A stretch of 63,237 nucleotides of DNA, filler included, from Globobulimina sp. (lineage: Eukaryota): assembly GCA_003354225.1 (NCBI GenBank). It is 25 parts of 25 records of this genome, joined end to end, with 100 filler letters (N's around TTAATTAATTAA, not from the genome) between each part and the next. Parts side by side here need not be neighbours in the genome. Positions count along the whole stretch, not along the records: positions 5,072 to 7,506 come from PIVH01006698.1; 24 more parts are not named here. One strand, given 5' to 3'. The notes beneath the pieces were generated by a model that was not told the DNA's origin, did no database searches, and saw only the letters and a list, made by a program, of their open reading frames with translations. The translations under genes were made by a program, and so were the position numbers. How positions within the stretch are numbered: position 1 is the first letter of the stretch; every line of letters begins with the position of its first letter. Shown here one piece after another: positions 2,862-62,836 of the stretch.

Positions 2862-4269
2862 ACCAATTCGACATCTTCGATAAATGAATTAATCCGACCA
2901 ATTAAATGCAAAATACCATCTTTGCCGAATCTAAAACAATATATAAAAACGTTAATTGACTGTAACTTCTTTGCAATTCGGGACTTGTCGGATTTCTTTC
3001 GTCAGATCGGTCTGTGTGAGGAGGACAGTAATTATATTTGTTACTCTCTTTTTGGTTTGGTTTGGAGAGATAGAAAACAACCTTACGGTGTAGCGTCTGC
3101 CCCAGCCAATAGCCAATATTTTGCGCAAATCTTAATATGGATATTGGAGAGGAAAAACACTTGTCCATATTGATGATTTTGTGTTGGGAGCACTGAAAGA
3201 AGCGGACTGTATTGAGATGGAGGCGAGATTTGACTCCTTGATGAAAGAGTTAAACGTCCAAGTTTCGTTAAAAGAGTCGGGGTTTATTCGGACCTGTCAG
3301 TCCGCTGTGATTTATGGGATAATGTTTGATTTGAAACATAAAATGGTGGGAATCCCCCCGGTGAAATATGCCAATTTCAAACAATTAATCCTATACACCC
3401 TAAAATATAGAGTCATCACTGGAGGTGCTCTTGAATCAATCTGTGGCACCATTATGCATTGGGCACAGTTAAAACAACCAACAAAAGCGTTATGTTGGAA
3501 TTTACTTCACTTTATTTATGACAATATCCGATCTGGAAAATATCCTAAAAATCACAATTTCATATTACCCCTTTCCATATTAAATGATCTGAAATATTGG
3601 TATTTCTATGCCGATCAGATTCTGAGAGTGCCAATGTCCGAGATATTAATGACCAAAAAAGTATCCATTTCAGCATCAACAGATGCCTCCTCCACCCATG
3701 GCGGCTATGTCATAGGTGGCTATTGGTCCAATTATCAATTTAATGAGAAGCATACTGCCGATTGGCATATTAACCAAAAAGAGGCTCATGTAATCCTGTC
3801 TGCGCTGTATACATTTCGTCATTATTTGACAGGAAAAACCATTCATTTGTTTGTTGACAATGAGTCCGTATATTATGCGATACGTAAAAAGTGGTCCTCG
3901 GCATATAATTTGATGCTATTCATAGATGAGTTATGTCATATGATGTTGGAATGTAAATTTTTGGTGTGGATCGATTGGATTTCATCCTCCACCAATGGTC
4001 TGTCAGACGCATTGTCCAGATGTAAATTGAATGATTTTTGGGCCATCGTAAATGATTATAATCTCAATATGGCGAATGGCAAAACAAAATCTGTCTATTT
4101 TGACCAATTCAAATTCCTAAATAAACAAATTAATAATAGTACAAATCCAATGGCTGACATCCAATATGACTTCAAAGAATATCAACAATTCATTACATTC
4201 TTGTGTCTTCCATTAAAGCAGCGAGCAAAACAAGGATACCCTAATTATGCGTCCAATTTCAAGATGTAA
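2862..4269 (+). pseudogene. Reverse transcriptase/RNase H of copy A, with a frame break at about 3135-3150
   Basis: The frame of ORF 2922 carries PYGVASAP. The frame of ORF 3181 extends upstream as YWRGKTLVHIDDFVLGA but meets a TAA at 3133-3135. Confidence 0.75.
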
Positions 4270-4971: not shown

Positions 4972-5190
4972 NNNNNNNNNNNNNNNNNNNNNNNNNNNNN
5001 NNNNNNNNNNNNNNNTTAATTAATTAANNNNNNNNNNNNNNNNNNNNNNNNNNNNNNNNNNNNNNNNNNNNAATGGCGAAATTCATGTGGAGAAAATTAG
5101 CACCGAGGTACAACAATCCGTTATAGAAAAGATATGTTGTATATAACTGAACAATGTACATAATCAGGAACAAAAATTCACTGTGACGGG

Positions 5191-5395
5191 AATAATAATT
5201 TATATGAGATAGTTTTCTCGGGACTTTTTACCGTTGGTTGATTGGTTGACATATGGCTTGGCTGCTTCGCATCCTAAGCAATATATCACAACAACAAACG
5301 AAAAAAAGACATTTCCGCCAACAAGTTGGCTTCCATTTCCCGAGAAAACTATCTCATATAAATTATTATGACTTTTTTATCTTGACGTCATGAGT
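5191..5395 (+). repeat. Left TIR containing an internal perfect 32-bp inverted repeat
   Basis: ATAATAATTTATATGAGATAGTTTTCTCGGGA at 5192-5223 and its reverse complement at 5338-5369; the TIR ends in TTGACGTCATGAGT. Confidence 0.95.
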
Positions 5396-5440
5396 AAATC
5401 CTAATCATAATTACTTTCAAGAAAAAACAGAAACACAATT

Positions 5441-5689
5441 ATGTCAATCATTACATTGATTTCAGAAACTCGGGCCTCACTCATTACACTGATTTTAGAT
5501 AATTATCGTGAAATCCTTGAAGTGATTTCAGAAACTCACATCAAAATCCTTAGAAGGATGGAAAGACTTCATTTAGCAATTAATGGTAGATTTCAGAACC
5601 ATACTGTCAGAATTATAGAAATTGAGAAGCAGTTAAAAGAACTTACGGCAGTTAAAAGCAGTAGTGGAAAAATTGATATAAATTTTTAA
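5441..5689 (+). CDS. Small helical/coiled-coil hypothetical protein (element unit 1)
   Basis: 82-aa ATG ORF preceded by a leader motif shared with unit 2. Confidence 0.6.
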   Translation: MSIITLISETRASLITLILDNYREILEVISETHIKILRRMERLHLAINGRFQNHTVRIIEIEKQLKELTAVKSSSGKIDINF

Positions 5690-5852
5690 TTATTCGTTTT
5701 CATTGTTATTTAAAATCAATTTTAATTTACGTTTTTCCGATATTGACGTCAAGACTTTGATGACTCATTGGAATTTCGGAAAAAGCACGAAAAAAAAAGA
5801 AAACAAAAAGGAAACTATTTATTATTGTCTGTTTTTAAATAATCAATCAATT

Positions 5853-6462
5853 TTAGTTTGGATTTTGCTCTTGAATGAATGATTCCAATCTTTGGATTTT
5901 CTTTTTTAAATAAACAACTTCATCTTGCAATAAGCCCACTTGCAACGCCAAATCTGGACAGCAAAAATTGTGTTTTTGGATTGGAGGTGGTAAGTTGGGT
6001 TTGTTTGGCATAATGGTGTACGGAAAAATTGAAATTTGCTGTTGGCTGTCACAATAATATGGGTTTGGCGATGGAAAAACAGCTGTGTCTTCCGGTGGTG
6101 AAGGTGTGTGACAATAAATGGATCGTTTTGAGGGTTGTTGCACTGTAAATTGTGGTGGCGATGGTCTTGGTTGTTGCTTTCTTTTTTTTTTGTTTGGTGG
6201 TGGCGGTGTCTTTTTTAACAATAAAATCTGAAATTTTAAAAACTCTCTTGATTACACCTTTAACTGACCGCATAATTTTTCCGTCTTGTAAAAAATTTAG
6301 CCAGAATTCACATTTGCAATCTTCTGGGCAAGGGCAAGGGCGAGTATGATATGTTTTCACATAACGTTCGCCGGATTGTAATTTTGTTAACATTCTTTCA
6401 TACGCATCGTCATCTACAAGAAAAAAAGGTTGTTCTTCAATTTTCTGTTTCCTTTTTGACAT
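5853..6462 (-). CDS. Hypothetical protein (element unit 2): Cys cluster, basic NLS-like and Pro-rich region, C-terminal leucine-zipper-like coil; two overlapping frames
   Basis: ATG at 6462 (MSKRKQK...CPCPEDCKC) follows the shared leader. Frame 5853-6221 (KKTPPPPNKKKRK...LQDEVVYLKKKIQRLESFI) overlaps it at an A-run, suggesting one gene with a frameshift. Confidence 0.5.
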
Positions 6463-6612
6463 TTTTTGTACTGTGTTTCTGTTTTTTCTTGAAAGTAATA
6501 GGAAGAGATGAAAGTGTTCCGAGTAATTATGATTAGGATTGACGTCAATATCGGAAATAATTTCGGAAAAAAACGGAAAAACGTAAATTAAGTTAAACAT
6601 TAAATAAATAAA

Positions 6613-6993
6613 TTAATTCCAATAAAGTTTAAAAAAAAACACTGGAGCATCGTGCTCCAAACTTTCATCATTCAATTTACAATCTCTTAAAGCCATTAAT
6701 TTAATAATGGCAAAGTCATCATTCTTTACCCTTTTCCGTCCAATGAATTTGCCTTGACAATCAATTGGAAATTCGTTTGATAGGCCCAATGAAATATCTT
6801 TAGGCGTTCCGTTTTCGCGGACAATATCATTAATGTTTCCTCGGATTTGCTGCACAATTTGTGCTTTTTTTCTATAATGCAACAATTCATAAAATGCACG
6901 AATATGCTCTGAAACATAGACTTTGCTCGGCATTGTTGGCTTGGTTTCTTCTTTACAATCTGAGGCTTCTTCTTCTTGTTTTTCTACGACCAC
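6613..6993 (-). CDS. Hypothetical protein (element unit 3); first ATG at 6933
   Basis: Open frame of 126 codons between TGACGTCA sites at 7050 and 6540. Confidence 0.5.
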   Translation of the reverse strand: MVVEKQEEEASDCKEETKPTMPSKVYVSEHIRAFYELLHYRKKAQIVQQIRGNINDIVRENGTPKDISLGLSNEFPIDCQGKFIGRKRVKNDDFAIIKLMALRDCKLNDESLEHDAPVFFFKLYWN

Positions 6994-7044
6994 AGCAAAA
7001 CCCGATCACGAATGATATTACAACTAAAATGTTATTGATGATTA

Positions 7045-7247
7045 ACTCATGACGTCAAGATAAAAAGTCATAATAATTTATATGAGATAGTTTTCTCGGG
7101 AAATGGAAGCCAACTTGTTGGCGGAAATGTCTTTTTTTCGTTTGTTGTTGGGATATATTGCTTAGGATGCGAAGCAGCCAAGCCATATGTCAACCAATCA
7201 ACCAACGGTAAAAAGTCCCGAGAAAACTATCTCATATAAATTATATT
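7045..7247 (-). repeat. Right TIR containing an internal inverted repeat
   Basis: Reverse complement of the left TIR with a few indels/substitutions; internal arms at 7070-7101 and 7216-7247. Confidence 0.95.
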
Positions 7248-7606
7248 GACGGGGTGGATCAACTTTTATTGGATTGGCAAACATGTCTTAATCCGAGAAG
7301 ATCGTGAACGATATCGTCGTTATGGTCCCAGAACAAATATTTGGCAAATCGTGGACGACGAGGATAAATTTGAAGATTATGCACAAGAATCCAAAGAAGA
7401 GAAGGAAGAGAAGGAAGAGAAGAAAACATTAATCGACAAAAAGACAACCAAAATCCGTAAACCATTTGGTGGATCTCTTGCGATGGACAATTTAAATTTA
7501 ACCTTCNNNNNNNNNNNNNNNNNNNNNNNNNNNNNNNNNNNNNNNNNNNNTTAATTAATTAANNNNNNNNNNNNNNNNNNNNNNNNNNNNNNNNNNNNNN
7601 NNNNNN

Positions 7607-35897: not shown

Positions 35898-36893
35898 TAG
35901 GGGTGTCCGATATGTAAAAGGTTTTTTTTCTGTTTGAAAAGGTTTTTTTTTAAAGTACTGATCTTATCAAACACCTTGCAAAGCGGCACTATGCCAGTCT
36001 CACATCGTAATACATTGATGCTATTATTGTTAGTATGAATAACGAATGAAACTGCACAAGAACAACGAGAACAATCGGGAGGAAGCGAGTGCCATCGATA
36101 AGAAACACAAAAGTTATCGCAGTGCGTTTATGCAAGGAAAGGGCCACAAAAAAGGCAAAAAGAAGAAATACAAAATTGGTGAGAATAACGACGGGATCAA
36201 TGATCCGCGCTTGGATTTGGTGGCTGTGTTGAAACACATTATGGAGAAAGCAAAAAATGTGAATGATTCGGTGACATTTATGTTAGATCCGACCTGTTTG
36301 AATGGATACATTTAGAGGGTAAAAGAGCCAATGCTTTTGGACTGGATTCAGCAAAATATCCAATATACGGAAGAATGCATAAGCGCCGTACAAAGCGGCA
36401 TTGTCGCAAAATAATTTGATGGATTTGCCAAAATAATTTGATGGATAATTTGATGGGCAAACCGGATAAAAAGGAATATAAAACGAGCCTACACAAGTTA
36501 AATAGTCGCCTAAATAGTCGCATAGGTTTCCTAAATAGTTGACTAAATAGTCACCATTTTCCGTTTCTGTATTGAAATAGTCACTAAATAGTTGCCTATT
36601 TTCGTTTTTGTATTGAAATAGTTACTAAATAGTCGCCCCTTTTCGTTTTTGTCACTAAATAGTCACAAATAGTCACTAAATAGTCACATATTGACTAATT
36701 AACTTGTGTAGGCTCTATAAAACATTTGAGGCATTTAAAGCAGATATAAAATTTGTTTCCTTTACGTTTTGGCATATTATCGAATGACTTTTAACGCGCC
36801 GACTGACTTTGTACTGAAGTTATCGAACTGAATGAAAAAAAGTAAGCTGTTTGAAAAGTTTTTTAAAAAATCAGTACTTATCGGACACCCCTA
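35898..36893. mobile_element. ~1-kb non-autonomous element with short TIRs
   Basis: TAGGGGTGTCCGATA at 35898-35912 and TATCGGACACCCCTA at 36879-36893; contains a decayed basic ORF and a nested MITE. Confidence 0.7.
36485..36715. mobile_element. 231-bp MITE with 17-bp TIRs and 8-bp TSD
   Basis: GAGCCTACACAAGTTAA (36485-36501) / TTAACTTGTGTAGGCTC (36699-36715); TATAAAAC at 36477-36484 and 36716-36723; internal AAATAGT(C/T) repeats. Confidence 0.92.
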
Positions 36894-42660: not shown

Positions 42661-43081
42661 CACACAACACGTACAAAGATACCAATGGGTCGCGACTCCC
42701 AATACAGTAAATTTGAATGGTATATGGATGTATCAATCAATCATAAATTTATATATTTTATTTCCTGGATTTGTTTTATTGGGTTTGGGTTTGGGTTTGG
42801 TTAGTTTGTACCAGGTTTTTTAGTGAGTTTTCATTTTTTTTTTGTATTTTTTTTTACATACTACAATAGCAACACATGCTAAAATTTATTGGTTTGGTTT
42901 TGTTAGTTTTGGTTTGGTTGGTTTTTAGTTTGTACCAGATTTTCAATCTAGTTTTCAACATTTTCAATCTGGTTTTCGTTTNNNNNNNNNNNNNNNNNNN
43001 NNNNNNNNNNNNNNNNNNNNNNNNNTTAATTAATTAANNNNNNNNNNNNNNNNNNNNNNNNNNNNNNNNNNNNNNNNNNNN

Positions 43082-60997: not shown

Positions 60998-62836
60998 TTA
61001 CGTTTAAAAAACGAGTGGCTCAGCAAATTACAGCGCTTACCATCCAAAACAGTCCTTCAACGAAAAATCTATAATTTAAATGCTTGGAAAAAAGAGGCCA
61101 AAACACATCGGTCCAAATTGGCGATCGAGAAGCTGATGGTAGAATTAGAGCTCGGCTTTGATTTAGGTTTTGACATAAAAAATCGGCCAGAGCCCCGACA
61201 TAAAGTCCGTAACCCACCAGCTGATTGTAACACTAGTATCGGTCTTTCGAAAACCGTTTTTAAGTGGTATACAAAAAACCAGTTACTTGGCCCGTTTACC
61301 ACGGAAGAAGCCAGAAAAATTGGTGTCACGGTAAGCCCCATTCACGGTGTACCAAAACCAGACGGATCAACACGACCCGTCATTAACCACTCTTACCCGA
61401 AAAGACGTTTTGAAACATCTGTCAATGGACATCTTGACGAAGATCTATGCACCGTCCAATACATTAACTTGCAGGCAATCGTGGCAACCGTACAAAGAGA
61501 AGGCCCCGGGGCTTGGGTATGGACACGTGACTTGGAAGATGGTTACTTCAACTGTATCCCTAGACAAGAACAAATGAAATTTTTAGCCTTCCCATGGGCC
61601 GGAAAAATATGGATACCAACAGTCATGACGTTCGGTTTAAGCTCTGCTCCAAAAATTTTTACTGACTTTATGACGGTACCCTTAAAAGCTATCCGACAAT
61701 TGGATCCAGCAATCTCATATCGAGAGTGCAAAGACGATAAGGTTTTTCCGATATTGATGAAAAACGAGCCGGATAAAATTGTCAGTTTTTGCCACAATAT
61801 TTACCCCTTAATTCGAAGCTACGTCGACGATATCATAGGGGTCCATAAAAATCACGAGGCAGCCTTGCGACAATTTGAGAACGCCGGGAGAAAATTAGAG
61901 GAGCTTAACCTAAGACCAAAAATTAAAAAAGATCAACACCCCTCGCAAGCAGCGATAGTTTTAGGTGCGTTGATTGATACCGTTAGGCAGCGAGTATTTT
62001 TACCAGACGAAAAAAGAAAACGGTACATCACAGATATTGAGGAAGTCCTTCAACTTCACAGGGTACATAAATCCCGGATTCATACAATCATTGGCAGAAC
62101 ACGACATAGTGCCCAGTTTTCACGACCACTTGCCGTGTTGGCTCGTAACTTAGACGCTTTTGTGTATGCAACCCCACCAACACAGCAATATGTCGATATG
62201 AACAACGACCTGCGCGATGATTTACGTTTCATCATCTGGGGAATTAATTTCGCAGCCGATACCGGCTCATCCTTTGATTATGTTGTAAAACCAGCGAATT
62301 CTGCTGACATCATCGGATATACAGATGCAGCCAAGGTTTATGGAGGTGTTGGTGGCTATTTACATGAACAAAAAGGAAGTTGGTTTCAGTGTCATTGGAA
62401 TAATATAGAAATGTCAGATCCCACTAAACGGGATATACAGTGGAGAGAGTTGGTCGCTGTCTATATTCTGTTAAAAATTAACAAAGAGCGACTACGCAAT
62501 AAAGCAATTACTGTTTATTGTGACAATGAACCCGTGTGTTGGATGATTAGTAAATTTCGGGCGGTTTTAACTAGACCCGACTTGCAGTGTGTCCTGCGAA
62601 AAATTGGTCAACTATTGATTGAGAACGAAATTCATTTATGGATGGAACATATCGCAGGAGAGAAAAATATCACTGCGGATAGATTATCTCGGTTTTATTA
62701 TAACCCTCTGAGTGAGTGTGCTGTGCCACTTAAAAACAGAGCTACCAGATGTCAGAAGGAAGTACAAGAGATCACTACATTATGTGAAAAATTCGAGATT
62801 GACCGACAGTATTTGATAAAAGACAAACAAGACTGA
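60998..62836 (+). CDS. Reverse transcriptase/RNase H of copy B (frame open from 60998, no ATG at its 5' end)
   Basis: GPF, SPI.GVPKPDG..R...NHS.P...SVN, DLEDGY, FGLSSAP.IF, YVDD, YTDA, ELVA, CDN, N..ADRLSR. Confidence 0.92.
   Translation, partial: LRLKNEWLSKLQRLPSKTVLQRKIYNLNAWKKEAKTHRSKLAIEKLMVELELGFDLGFDIKNRPEPRHKVRNPPADCNTSIGLSKTVFKWYTKNQLLGPFTTEEARKIGVTVSPIHGVPKPDGSTRPVINHSYPKRRFETSVNGHLDEDLCTVQYINLQAIVATVQREGPGAWVWTRDLEDGYFNCIPRQEQMKFLAFPWAGKIWIPTVMTFGLSSAPKIFTDFMTVPLKAIRQLDPAISYRECKDDKVFPILMKNEPDKIVSFCHNIYPLIRSYVDDIIGVHKNHEAALRQFENAGRKLEELNLRPKIKKDQHPSQAAIVLGALIDTVRQRVFLPDEKRKRYITDIEEVLQLHRVHKSRIHTIIGRTRHSAQFSRPLAVLARNLDAFVYATPPTQQYVDMNNDLRDDLRFIIWGINFAADTGSSFDYVVKPANSADIIGYTDAAKVYGGVGGYLHEQKGSWFQCHWNNIEMSDPTKRDIQWRELVAVYILLKINKERLRNKAITVYCDNEPVCWMISKFRAVLTRPDLQCVLRKIGQLLIENEIHLWMEHIAGEKNITADRLSRFYYNPLSECAVPLKNRATRCQKEVQEITTLCEKFEIDRQYLIKDKQD

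Follow-up and report, generated by a model that had tools for sequence, protein, structure and literature searches.

Integrons and shufflons, both bacterial, depend on a tyrosine recombinase encoded next to them. The cassettes of an integron lack promoters, all point the same way and carry attC at their 3′ end only, and the segments of a shufflon supply one gene with alternative ends. Pack-type elements usually carry host-gene fragments and are bordered by 9-10-bp duplications. Parvoviruses and densoviruses have promoter-bearing hairpin terminal repeats, with genes running inward from both ends and transcripts converging in mid-genome. Polinton-like viruses, virophages and transpovirons place the same short promoter motif before each gene, and many genes are followed by a common 3′ signal (PMC11788076; 10.1101/2022.07.28.501842), and the mimivirus-type early promoter AAAATTGA is used by a Polinton-like virus too (10.1101/2022.07.28.501842). 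The transpoviron is a linear episome of ~7 kb with terminal inverted repeats (TIRs) and a helicase, which uses the promoters of its giant virus (PMC11788076). Viruses also cluster CRE-like and TRE-like motifs in repeats, forming enhancers that act via host bZIP factors (PMC13513840).

The window considered here, the whole stretch of 63,237 bases that was analysed, consists of 25 concatenated contigs of ~2,435 bp separated by spacers of the form N44-TTAATTAATTAA-N44, and comes from an AT-rich, intron-poor eukaryote. A single contig of 2,435 bp (5072-7506) carries an entire element of 2,056 bp (5191-7246), which lies between TIRs and is flanked by a 7-bp target duplication, TGACGGG. Its interior is divided by four copies of the palindrome TGACGTCA into three units. 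We favour, with a probability of about 0.5, the reading that this is a non-autonomous element whose genes would be served by virus-style promoter and terminator modules arranged around a CRE/ATF-type site. The palindrome is most likely the mark of on/off signals that the genes share, not of gene shuffling.

The boundaries of the element are sharply defined. The left copy of TGACGGG (5184-5190) is exact and adjoins the left end, and the right copy (7247-7253) adjoins the right end; these account for two of the three matches to this heptamer in the window. Complementary arms delimit a left TIR of ~210 nt (5191-5400, plus strand), which includes the first palindrome copy, and a right TIR (7040-7246, minus strand) with a foldback of its own (stems 7067-7101 and 7216-7250). 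The arms are 99% complementary over 183 nt (5195-5377 with 7062-7244), and a 27-nt extension pair (5374-5400 with 7040-7066) is 96% complementary. In either TIR the outer 179 nt form a self-complementary foldback. On the left (5192-5369), 32-nt stems at 5192-5223 and 5338-5369 are 100% complementary and enclose a 114-nt loop; folded as DNA, this structure reaches -51.4 kcal/mol (z-score -11.3), which none of 200 shuffles matched. A second inverted repeat, 5706-5752 with 6539-6607, is nested inside this outer pair.

TIRs flanked by a target-site duplication are the hallmark of class II TIR DNA transposons, and the element has both; it encodes no transposase or integrase. Within the window, the TIR end is present in contig 5072-7506 only, and it had no match in the viral, metagenome and prokaryote genome contig collections. 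Compared with 35 loci and with the rest of the window, the contig showed nucleotide similarity limited to short chance matches, and Rfam returned no match.

Inverted repeats and symmetry in so short a contig could also reflect a chimera formed during assembly or amplification. The assembly is highly fragmented, as the 25 contigs of ~2.4 kb illustrate, one reading frame breaks near homopolymer runs (see below), and the contig sequence was found in only one of three sequencing runs (share 0.93), the other two, from the same sample, holding next to none. A chimera, however, would not flank the element with a 7-bp direct repeat, nor place exact palindromes at four gene boundaries, nor leave nested repeats that contain small indels. 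The right flank of the element, moreover, runs on in a coding frame with host-like codon usage. We therefore judge an artefact to be highly improbable. With the empty site reconstructed, the frame of the right flank extends over the junction for just 14 open codons, which is not significant.

A sequence-only reading of this DNA had placed TGACGTCA at 5383, 5744, 6540 and 7050. These four positions are the only exact matches in the window, and all fall in the one 2,435-bp contig. The other 24 contigs contain none, and the palindrome is therefore not visibly in general host promoter usage. Shuffling gave a mean of 0.83 matches window-wide, with four reached in 0 of 100 shuffles; one-mismatch variants showed no enrichment (15 seen versus 20.1 expected). 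With the composition of the other contigs as background, a Poisson estimate (lambda 0.022 per 2,056 bp) puts P(>=4) at ~9e-9, and counting the sites as two independent events, an inverted-repeat pair and a 19-nt duplicated block, puts P(>=2) at ~2e-4.

TGACGTCA is the CRE/ATF consensus palindrome, and three of its four copies are promoter-proximal, as is expected of this 8-bp site. Site 1 (5383-5390) lies within the TIR and precedes the unit 1 ATG by 50 nt; site 3 (6540-6547) precedes the unit 2 ATG by 77 nt and follows the unit 3 stop by 65 nt; and site 4 (7050-7057), again within the TIR, precedes the unit 3 ATG by 116 nt. Site 2 (5744-5751) sits between converging 3′ ends, 54 nt past the unit 1 stop and 101 nt past the unit 2 stop. 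It has no gene to drive, which is a point against a regulatory reading. The 3′ flank of unit 2 contains an AP-1/TRE-type site, TGACTCA (5761-5767), 9 nt away from site 2; it is the sole match in the contig and one of 16 in the window. A bZIP-type variant, TGAGTWAATC, adjoins sites 1 and 4. The palindromes had been described as sitting exactly at the unit boundaries. There is indeed one per boundary, but sites 1 and 4 lie inside the TIR rather than at its edge; because the inverted repeat runs through both and 10 nt beyond, these two are a single duplicated sequence.

The matches listed from literature on TGACGTCA and terminal inverted repeats were unrelated, and among the matches listed from the giant-virus literature we found no TGACGTCA. 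An 18-mer over site 2 matched a contig from a giant-virus bin (L006); we ascribe this match to chance, as it falls inside a 215-aa ORF and the contig contains a single palindrome.

The spacing of the palindromes could alternatively record serial insertion into a palindromic hotspot, in which case the TGACGTCA copies would be target-site duplications of 8 bp. Without 5391-7049, the two arms and a single TGACGTCA between them make up a near-perfect palindrome of ~390 bp with one 1-nt indel, and the segment sits at the exact centre of it. This segment has 10-nt inverted ends (TGAGTWAATC) that abut sites 1 and 4, as expected if a transposon with short inverted ends had duplicated 8 bp of its target, and the outer duplication TGACGGG starts with TGACG, which could mean the same target preference. 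Unit 2 (5752-6539), however, lacks inverted ends of its own, which leaves sites 2 and 3 unexplained, and these lie in a 19-nt inverted block. The 10-nt ends could just as well belong to the long TIR as its inner portion, and no transposase is present. We consider such a history quite unlikely.

Each interval between palindromes holds one ORF, in the orientations +,-,-, and our ORF search agrees with the sequence-only reading on this point. The flanks it had quoted as common to units 1 and 2, 1 and 3, and 2 and 3 all proved exact and unique to the contig. On the 5′ side, a 19-mer (5397-5415) and a 28-mer (5410-5437) recur as the reverse complements of 6522-6540 and 6472-6499. On the 3′ side, an 18-mer (5722-5739) recurs as the reverse complement of 6574-6591. 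A further 19-mer, common to sites 2 and 3, occurs at 5734-5752 and, as reverse complement, at 6539-6557, and a 13-mer is found at 5772-5784 and 6559-6571, both times on the minus strand. All five matches are exact and unique to contig 5072-7506.

These repeat pairs, together with flank comparison, define modules at the unit ends. The 5′ module of unit 1 (5391-5440, plus strand) consists of TGAGTAAATC followed by the 19-mer and 28-mer common with unit 2, and the 5′ module of unit 2 (6463-6539, minus strand) contains the same two blocks with a 28-nt insert between them. The 3′ module of unit 1 (5706-5743, plus strand) is T-rich, ends in TTTTTCCGATAT and is common with unit 3, whose version (6548-6612, minus strand) has an internal tandem duplication of a TTTCCG motif. 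The two ends are the only DNA that units 1 and 3 have in common, and their proteins gave no alignment; the coding sequences are unrelated, as had been proposed. In all pairwise comparisons, the flank homology begins or ends 0-7 nt from the palindrome. A recombination joint would look alike, and this counts against a regulatory reading, as do exact identities of 28, 19, 19 and 18 nt, which exceed what a short binding motif needs.

The same layout invites the view that the units are recombination cassettes, integrated, excised or inverted at the symmetric TGACGTCA core by a recombinase encoded elsewhere. The symmetry of the core would allow either orientation, and the conserved bases next to it would be recombinase-binding arms. 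Such exchange would account for the single palindrome at each unit boundary, the mixed orientations, the homology that stops 0-7 nt from the core, and the likeness of units 1 and 3 at both ends around unrelated coding sequences. It would also account for half-sites that look mosaic: site 3 combines the left half of site 2 (3′ module) with the right half of site 1 (5′ module). Several observations argue against it. No ORF of the 2.4-kb contig contains a recombinase or other Pfam domain, three of the four cores lie at promoter distance from an ATG, two cores belong to the TIR, and the motif is familiar as a site for transcription factors. That the shared blocks extend to the start codon fits leaders better than recombinase arms, and relatives on viral contigs (see below) show similar block sharing without such a core. 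On balance we regard recombination cassettes as unlikely.

We next consider the encoded proteins. Unit 1 encodes 82 aa (5441-5689, plus strand) and contains three in-frame 33-nt repeats, corresponding to 11 residues of coiled-coil-like character; it has no homologues. Unit 3 encodes 106 aa from its first ATG (6613-6933, minus strand), in a frame that is open back to 6993, and likewise has no homologues; a single-sequence model of it reached a pLDDT of 54. Unit 2 is split over two minus-strand frames, which run from 6462 to 6052 and from 6221 to 5856. In the first (6052-6462), residues ~10-85 form a conserved Cys-rich domain, and the second (5853-6221, 122 codons) contains a basic NLS-like stretch, a Pro-rich linker and a C-terminal Leu zipper of four heptads. 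The frame change falls between ~6221 and 6052, possibly at one of two T runs, 6211-6216 or 6182-6191. Judging from this arrangement, unit 2 would be either a frameshifted gene or the product of a homopolymer assembly error, and a frameshift could mean that the element is in decay.

By host-like codon score, the annotated frame of each of the four ORF segments is the best of six. The scores are 0.08 (unit 1), 0.15, 0.26 (second frame of unit 2) and 0.26 (unit 3), compared with 0.21 +/- 0.07 for the host, and by this measure the ORFs look real. Pfam, PHROGs and NCBIfam returned nothing for the element's proteins, bar a weak unit 1 match to a PHROG whose function is not known (E 0.004), which we took as coiled-coil noise. 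A word-based protein search found no relatives of unit 2 or unit 3, an Atlas protein search gave no usable match, and the fetched loci held no relatives of units 1 and 3 or of the unit 2 tail.

These features also bear on whether the element is the remnant of an old palindromic duplication, in which a gene and its flanks were copied in inverted orientation and then diverged, leaving dead ORFs and a motif copied along without function. The nested inverted-repeat architecture, the frameshifted unit 2, the lack of homologues for units 1 and 3 and the low codon score of unit 1 (0.08) would all fit. Uniform decay, however, is a poor fit to TIRs that are 99% identical, implying recent origin or homogenisation, yet enclose unit 1 and unit 3 coding parts that share nothing. 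By an estimate from stop-codon frequency, ORFs of 106-126 and 122 codons are improbable by chance at 33% GC, and the unit 2 domain keeps all of its family-invariant residues. We regard a decaying duplication as unlikely.

The C-terminus of unit 2 has Leu at four heptad positions in succession. Modelled as a parallel homodimer, the zipper scored 0.40 versus 0.02 for the best control. Of 30 proteins solved as pairs, 21 attained that mark, against none of 23 solved as single chains; coiled coils resemble many solved zippers, however, and the pass may come from the model's memory of these. Across three runs, at least 90% of contacts agreed and the partner pLDDT was at least 74. We therefore describe this region as a predicted dimerising leucine zipper. 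In bZIP proteins, a basic region that contacts DNA directly precedes the zipper; in unit 2 the residues just before the zipper are not basic, and there was no bZIP Pfam match even at E<=10.

The Cys-rich domain of unit 2 (~75 aa) has 97 relatives, counted as 50%-identity clusters, at E<=1e-3 and 29 at E<=1e-10, and belongs to a previously unnamed family. The invariant residues of the family, C44, C50, C52 and R66, are all kept in unit 2. The domain is modelled with a pLDDT of ~95 and, with Cys or His at positions 44, 46, 50 and 52, is probably zinc-binding. Searched with the family profile, PDB sequences yielded no relative; the model gave no fold match in the PDB (best E 0.29) or BFVD (best E 0.13) and matched no known DNA-binding fold. 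The word-based search contained no longer fused forms of the family, the prokaryote genome scan contained no members, and scans with the family protein P0100 and a second subfamily alignment added no viral loci. The members of the family clusters bear no informative names.

Two family members are encoded on IMG/VR contigs of 17.4 and 18.1 kb. These contigs are of Polinton-like-virus type and encode an AEP primase with D5 helicase, a Pox_A32-like ATPase, a lipase, a GIY-YIG protein and a fibre protein. On them, the family gene and an unrelated neighbour have identical upstream blocks of 19 and 21 nt around AAAATTGA. The blocks precede two genes in one locus (L001), and in another (L002) three copies of the module lie upstream of two genes. 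Neither contig contains TGACGTCA; the motif there is a different one.

The sequence-only reading had offered two alternatives, an integron- or shufflon-like array and a virus-like shared promoter/terminator grammar. The first is without support, because the contig encodes no recombinase domain and the units have their own 5′ flanks and mixed orientation. The second is better supported, because three of the four palindromes lie 50-116 nt before an ATG, with the CRE/ATF motif itself and an AP-1-type site near site 2, and because the relatives on viral contigs have neighbours that share blocks around AAAATTGA.

From this arrangement we infer how the element, if transcribed, bound by a factor and mobile, might work. 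The element encoding no transposase or integrase, its TIR ends would be cis sites for an enzyme supplied in trans. The interior would form an ambisense mini-genome of three small genes, with unit 1 reading inward from the left end and units 3 and 2 from the right. Each gene would be driven by a 5′ module made up of the palindrome, AATCCTAATCATAATTACT and then the 28-nt leader, and the T-rich 3′ module, with its repeats of TTTTTCCG, would terminate the transcripts. The four TGACGTCA copies are predicted CRE/ATF-type binding sites of a dimeric transcription factor; because the site is palindromic, it could serve genes on both strands. Two of the four copies would be present because the TIR extends through them, and the copy at site 2 would be part of the 19-nt block duplicated along with the terminator module. 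Within the element, the modules may have spread by duplication or by gene conversion between the nested inverted repeats.

A host bZIP protein might act as this factor. The unit 2 product itself is a more speculative candidate; it would unite the Cys-rich domain with a basic stretch and a leucine zipper predicted to form homodimers. A further step would make the element a cassette system of a virus-related eukaryotic element, with TGACGTCA acting both as the joint for exchange of single-gene units in either orientation and as the operator of the dimeric unit 2 zipper protein; we think this very unlikely. If true, it would amount to a eukaryotic counterpart of integron-like gene shuffling. A cassette reading would matter far more than the one we prefer, and the evidence for it is now the layout.

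If the promoter/terminator reading holds, this would be among the smallest gene-carrying inverted-repeat elements with uniform expression signals of their own, and a mobile element in which all promoters are built, independently of orientation, on a host-type CRE palindrome. Through the Cys-rich family, it would connect an insertion in a eukaryotic genome with the Polinton-like-virus gene pool, and it would offer a simple system for the expression and mobilisation of tiny enzyme-less elements.

Set against described systems, the element resembles integron cassettes and shufflons in having single-gene units split by a recurring, partly palindromic site, and shares mixed orientation with shufflons. 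An integron comprises an intI tyrosine recombinase with attI and a Pc promoter; the ORFs of the 2.4-kb contig contain no Pfam domain. In place of promoterless, co-oriented attC cassettes, the units here are oriented +,-,- and have 5′ flanks of 50-116 nt with shared blocks. Shufflons have alternative C-termini, sfx repeats and Rci; here the three ORFs are complete and unrelated, and there is no recombinase.

With Pack-MULE-like and foldback elements, the element shares long inverted ends, a target duplication, the lack of a transposase and unrelated genes in mixed orientation. Unlike Pack-type elements, it has a 7-bp duplication, its ORFs look complete and have shared flanks of their own, and the remaining 61 kb of the window contain nothing similar to it. 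Its hairpin-forming terminal repeats and genes directed inward from both ends recall the ambisense layout of parvoviruses and densoviruses. In contrast to a parvovirus, it lacks both Rep/NS1 and capsid genes, has integrated with a target duplication and, at its size, is half as large as the smallest parvovirus.

The small elements associated with giant viruses are similarly small, with TIRs and compact genes on both strands. The present element differs from them in using TGACGTCA instead of AAAATTGA or TATATA, and in being 2 kb long, integrated with a target duplication and devoid of capsid, ATPase, helicase and polymerase genes. The capsid, packaging ATPase and replication genes by which a Polinton-like virus or virophage is recognised are absent from it and present on its relatives' contigs (L001/L008); with the Polinton-like-virus contigs it has one accessory gene family in common and no more. 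From a transpoviron it is set apart by its 2-kb length, the lack of a helicase and its integration with a target duplication. Finally, baculovirus homologous regions cluster CRE and TRE sites (PMC13513840), and the element likewise has an 8-bp palindrome identical to the CRE, with an AP-1/TRE-type site close by, in repeated non-coding DNA of a mobile or viral genome; here, rather than forming a tandem enhancer array, the candidate sites are placed one at each gene boundary.

The palindrome TGACGTCA, a CRE/ATF-type motif, has four matches in the window, all in the contig at 5072-7506 (sites 1-4, at 5383, 5744, 6540 and 7050), as the sequence-only reading had counted; 0.83 were expected, four or more occurred in 0 of 100 shuffles, and none was found in the remaining 24 contigs. 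One-mismatch variants appear at chance levels across the window (15 observed, 20.1 expected). For the 2,056-bp element that carries the sites (5191-7246), composition of the contigs other than its own predicts 0.022 sites, giving P(≥4) of ~9e-9, or P(≥2) of ~2e-4 if only two independent origins are counted. Each interval between palindromes holds a single small ORF, in the claimed orientation +,-,-: unit 1 (plus strand, 5441-5689), unit 2 (minus strand, 6462 to 5853) and unit 3 (minus strand, 6613-6933). The five flanking blocks reported as shared are all exact, each absent from the rest of the window, and the coding sequences proved unrelated as stated, with units 1 and 3 alike at both ends only and having nothing in common between them.

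These sites and units lie wholly inside one contig. The 63,237 bases comprise 25 separate contigs of ~2,435 bp each, joined by N44-TTAATTAATTAA-N44 spacers; long-range repeats that take in these spacers are artefacts, and the window represents several loci, not one. Other contigs contain long, uninterrupted ORFs for SNAPC3, a Patched-type sterol-sensing domain, a choline-transporter-like protein and further eukaryotic products (MSH2-like MutS, TLDc-SAM-ubiquitin, reverse transcriptases). Together with a GC content of ~30-44%, these ORFs indicate that the host is an AT-rich, intron-poor eukaryote. Retroelement ORFs in two other contigs (3181-4269 and 61118-62836) have an RT-associated RNase H domain and an RVT_1 domain; one contig carries a 41-nt tandem repeat in three copies (36542-36664), and a TTTGGG-rich direct repeat lies near the end of another (42760-42964).

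The element is bounded by a 183-nt inverted repeat (5195-5377/7062-7244, 99%) that continues past a 1-nt indel through 5374-5400/7040-7066. The terminal inverted repeat (TIR) is therefore ~210 nt long and includes sites 1 and 4, which had been placed exactly at TIR/unit boundaries and instead are followed by 10 further TIR bases, TGAGTWAATC. Each outer end is directly flanked by the 7-mer TGACGGG (5184-5190 and 7247-7253; two of just three window copies), which marks 5191-7246 as a transposition-type insertion. The first five bases of this 7-mer are those of the internal palindrome, and the sequence at the right junction is ATATTGACG, the same as at sites 2 and 3; this resemblance could hint at a target preference or could be coincidence. 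The right flank (7254-7506) carries a threefold GAAGAGAAG repeat and continues in a frame whose codon score, 0.245, is host-like. In the reconstructed empty site this frame is open leftward for just 14 codons; insertion into a coding exon is possible. A search with the TIR ends found no second copy in the window or in viral, metagenome and prokaryote contig collections.

Within the element, each TIR arm forms a foldback with perfect 32-nt stems and a 114-nt loop (-51.4 kcal/mol, z-score -11.3), and a second inverted pair (5706-5752/6539-6607) brackets unit 2. The resulting order is nested and symmetric: TIR and promoter part, unit 1 reading inward, 3′ module and palindrome, unit 2, palindrome and 3′ module, unit 3 reading inward, promoter part and TIR. 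Palindromes lie 50, 77 and 116 nt from the start codons and 54, 101 and 65 nt from the stops. The 5′ flanks of units 1 and 2 match, except that the unit 2 copy carries a 28-nt insert and lacks seven palindrome-adjacent bases. A TGACTCA site is found 9 nt away from site 2.

Host-like codon scoring ranked the annotated frame first among the six for every ORF segment (unit 1, 0.08; unit 2 domain, 0.15; unit 2 second frame, 0.26; unit 3, 0.26; host ORF chunks, 0.21 ± 0.07). No ORF has a meaningful Pfam, PHROGs or NCBIfam match, and searches detected no relatives of units 1 and 3. Unit 1 encodes 82 aa and contains a 33-nt repeat in three in-frame copies. The unit 2 reading frame shifts between 6221 and 6052, a stretch with T6 and T10 runs; the gene either is frameshifted or contains a homopolymer error. 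Its second frame encodes a basic stretch, a Pro-rich linker and four Leu heptads, and residues 78-122 were modelled as a homodimer, a parallel in-register helix pair, at 0.40 against 0.02 for the best control (at least 90% of contacts agreeing between runs, pLDDT at least 74). Of proteins solved as pairs, 21 of 30 attain that mark, against 0 of 23 solved as single chains, though the pass may reflect likeness to solved zippers. A bZIP protein is ruled out, because no basic region adjoins the zipper.

The Cys-rich domain of unit 2 has 97 relatives at E≤1e-3, 29 of them at E≤1e-10, in a full HMMER scan of 1.84 billion representatives, with 32-56% identity across residues ~10-85. C44, C50, C52 and R66 are invariant in a 66-sequence alignment, and position 46 is His in most members and Cys in the window protein; this pattern suggests a metal site. 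AlphaFold with this alignment gives the domain a pLDDT of ~95, with no fold match among solved or viral predicted structures and no PDB sequence or Pfam family match. The members are unnamed metagenome proteins, and the domain, a by-product of this analysis, is an undescribed, widely distributed small Cys-rich family. One member, on a 1.6-kb metagenome contig (58% GC), has TGACGTC (181-187) upstream, ~45 nt from its first conserved residue, and TGAGTCA (531-537) downstream, 9 nt past its stop, mirroring unit 2 with CRE upstream and TRE downstream, a post hoc likeness at a single locus.

The family has two members on IMG/VR contigs (17,449 and 18,065 bp), whose other products are an AEP primase with D5-type helicase, a lipase, a Peptidase_S74-domain fibre protein, GIY-YIG, a RING protein, a cytosine methylase fragment and a Pox_A32-like ATPase. 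For a neighbouring gene on one of them, relatives occur on 28 further IMG/VR contigs (29 loci with the query's own), 8 of the 29 contigs being 16.6-18.3 kb long, which fits complete small genomes of the Polinton-like-virus kind. Primase-helicase, Pox_A32-like ATPase, lipase, GIY-YIG and fibre genes recur across this ~17-18-kb group (L001, L002, L008, L010 and 25 further loci among L007-L035). The family gene occurs on just these two contigs and the 1.6-kb metagenome contig among 35 compared loci, which makes it an accessory gene.

In viral loci L001 and L002, identical blocks precede the family gene and an unrelated neighbour: one of 19 nt containing AAAATTGA and one of 21 nt lying directly before the ATG. 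Two genes share them in L001, and three module copies stand upstream of two genes in L002. AAAATTGA is described as a mimivirus-type early promoter preceding five Polinton-like virus genes (preprint 10.1101/2022.07.28.501842) and is reported from transpovirons (PMC11788076). In the two loci examined, the reused ~60-nt module (AAAATTGA, 23 nt, then a TATAGCATCAAAACAA leader) stands before a few genes close to one genome end; in a third, L008, AAAATTGA occurs within 120 nt upstream of only 2 of 19 ORFs, the primase-helicase and family genes. The contig at 5072-7506 has 5 of the 23 window matches to AAAATTGA, none upstream of the three ORFs, one in unit 2 codons 7-9 and two overlapping the ends of units 1 and 2; such matches could have arisen by chance in AT-rich DNA or could be relics.

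The most economical account, at even odds (about 0.5), is a non-autonomous TIR element whose three genes share one expression grammar. This is the virus-like alternative of the sequence-only reading, which we favour to the same degree given the block sharing upstream of unrelated genes in viral relatives. The promoter/leader module would open with the palindrome, and the 3′ module is T-rich. Two palindromes duplicate each other because the TIR runs through both, and the one between converging 3′ ends would have been copied with the terminator block. A palindrome would act on both strands, and so would suit an ambisense element. As a precedent, some viruses are described as gathering CRE-like and TRE-like sites into repeats that recruit host bZIP factors (PMC13513840); a tempting guess has the palindrome recognised by the element's own dimeric unit 2 protein.

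Several observations argue against such a grammar. Binding sites need neither the length nor the exactness of the shared blocks, each pairwise homology starts or stops 0-7 nt from a palindrome, site 2 drives no gene, the palindrome is absent from the other 24 contigs, and the viral relatives use a different motif, TGACGTCA not being found on viral contigs that carry the unit 2 family. These five points keep alive both an integron/shufflon-like array of recombination cassettes, the other alternative raised initially and one we consider improbable, and serial insertion, whereby a foldback palindrome would have TGACGTCA at its centre as an 8-bp target duplication. Block sharing on the viral contigs shows that long exact blocks before unrelated genes are normal in the nearest relatives, where they are promoters. 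Under the expression-grammar account, the element would combine two known kinds of system, a gene-carrying TIR element and virus-style per-gene signals.
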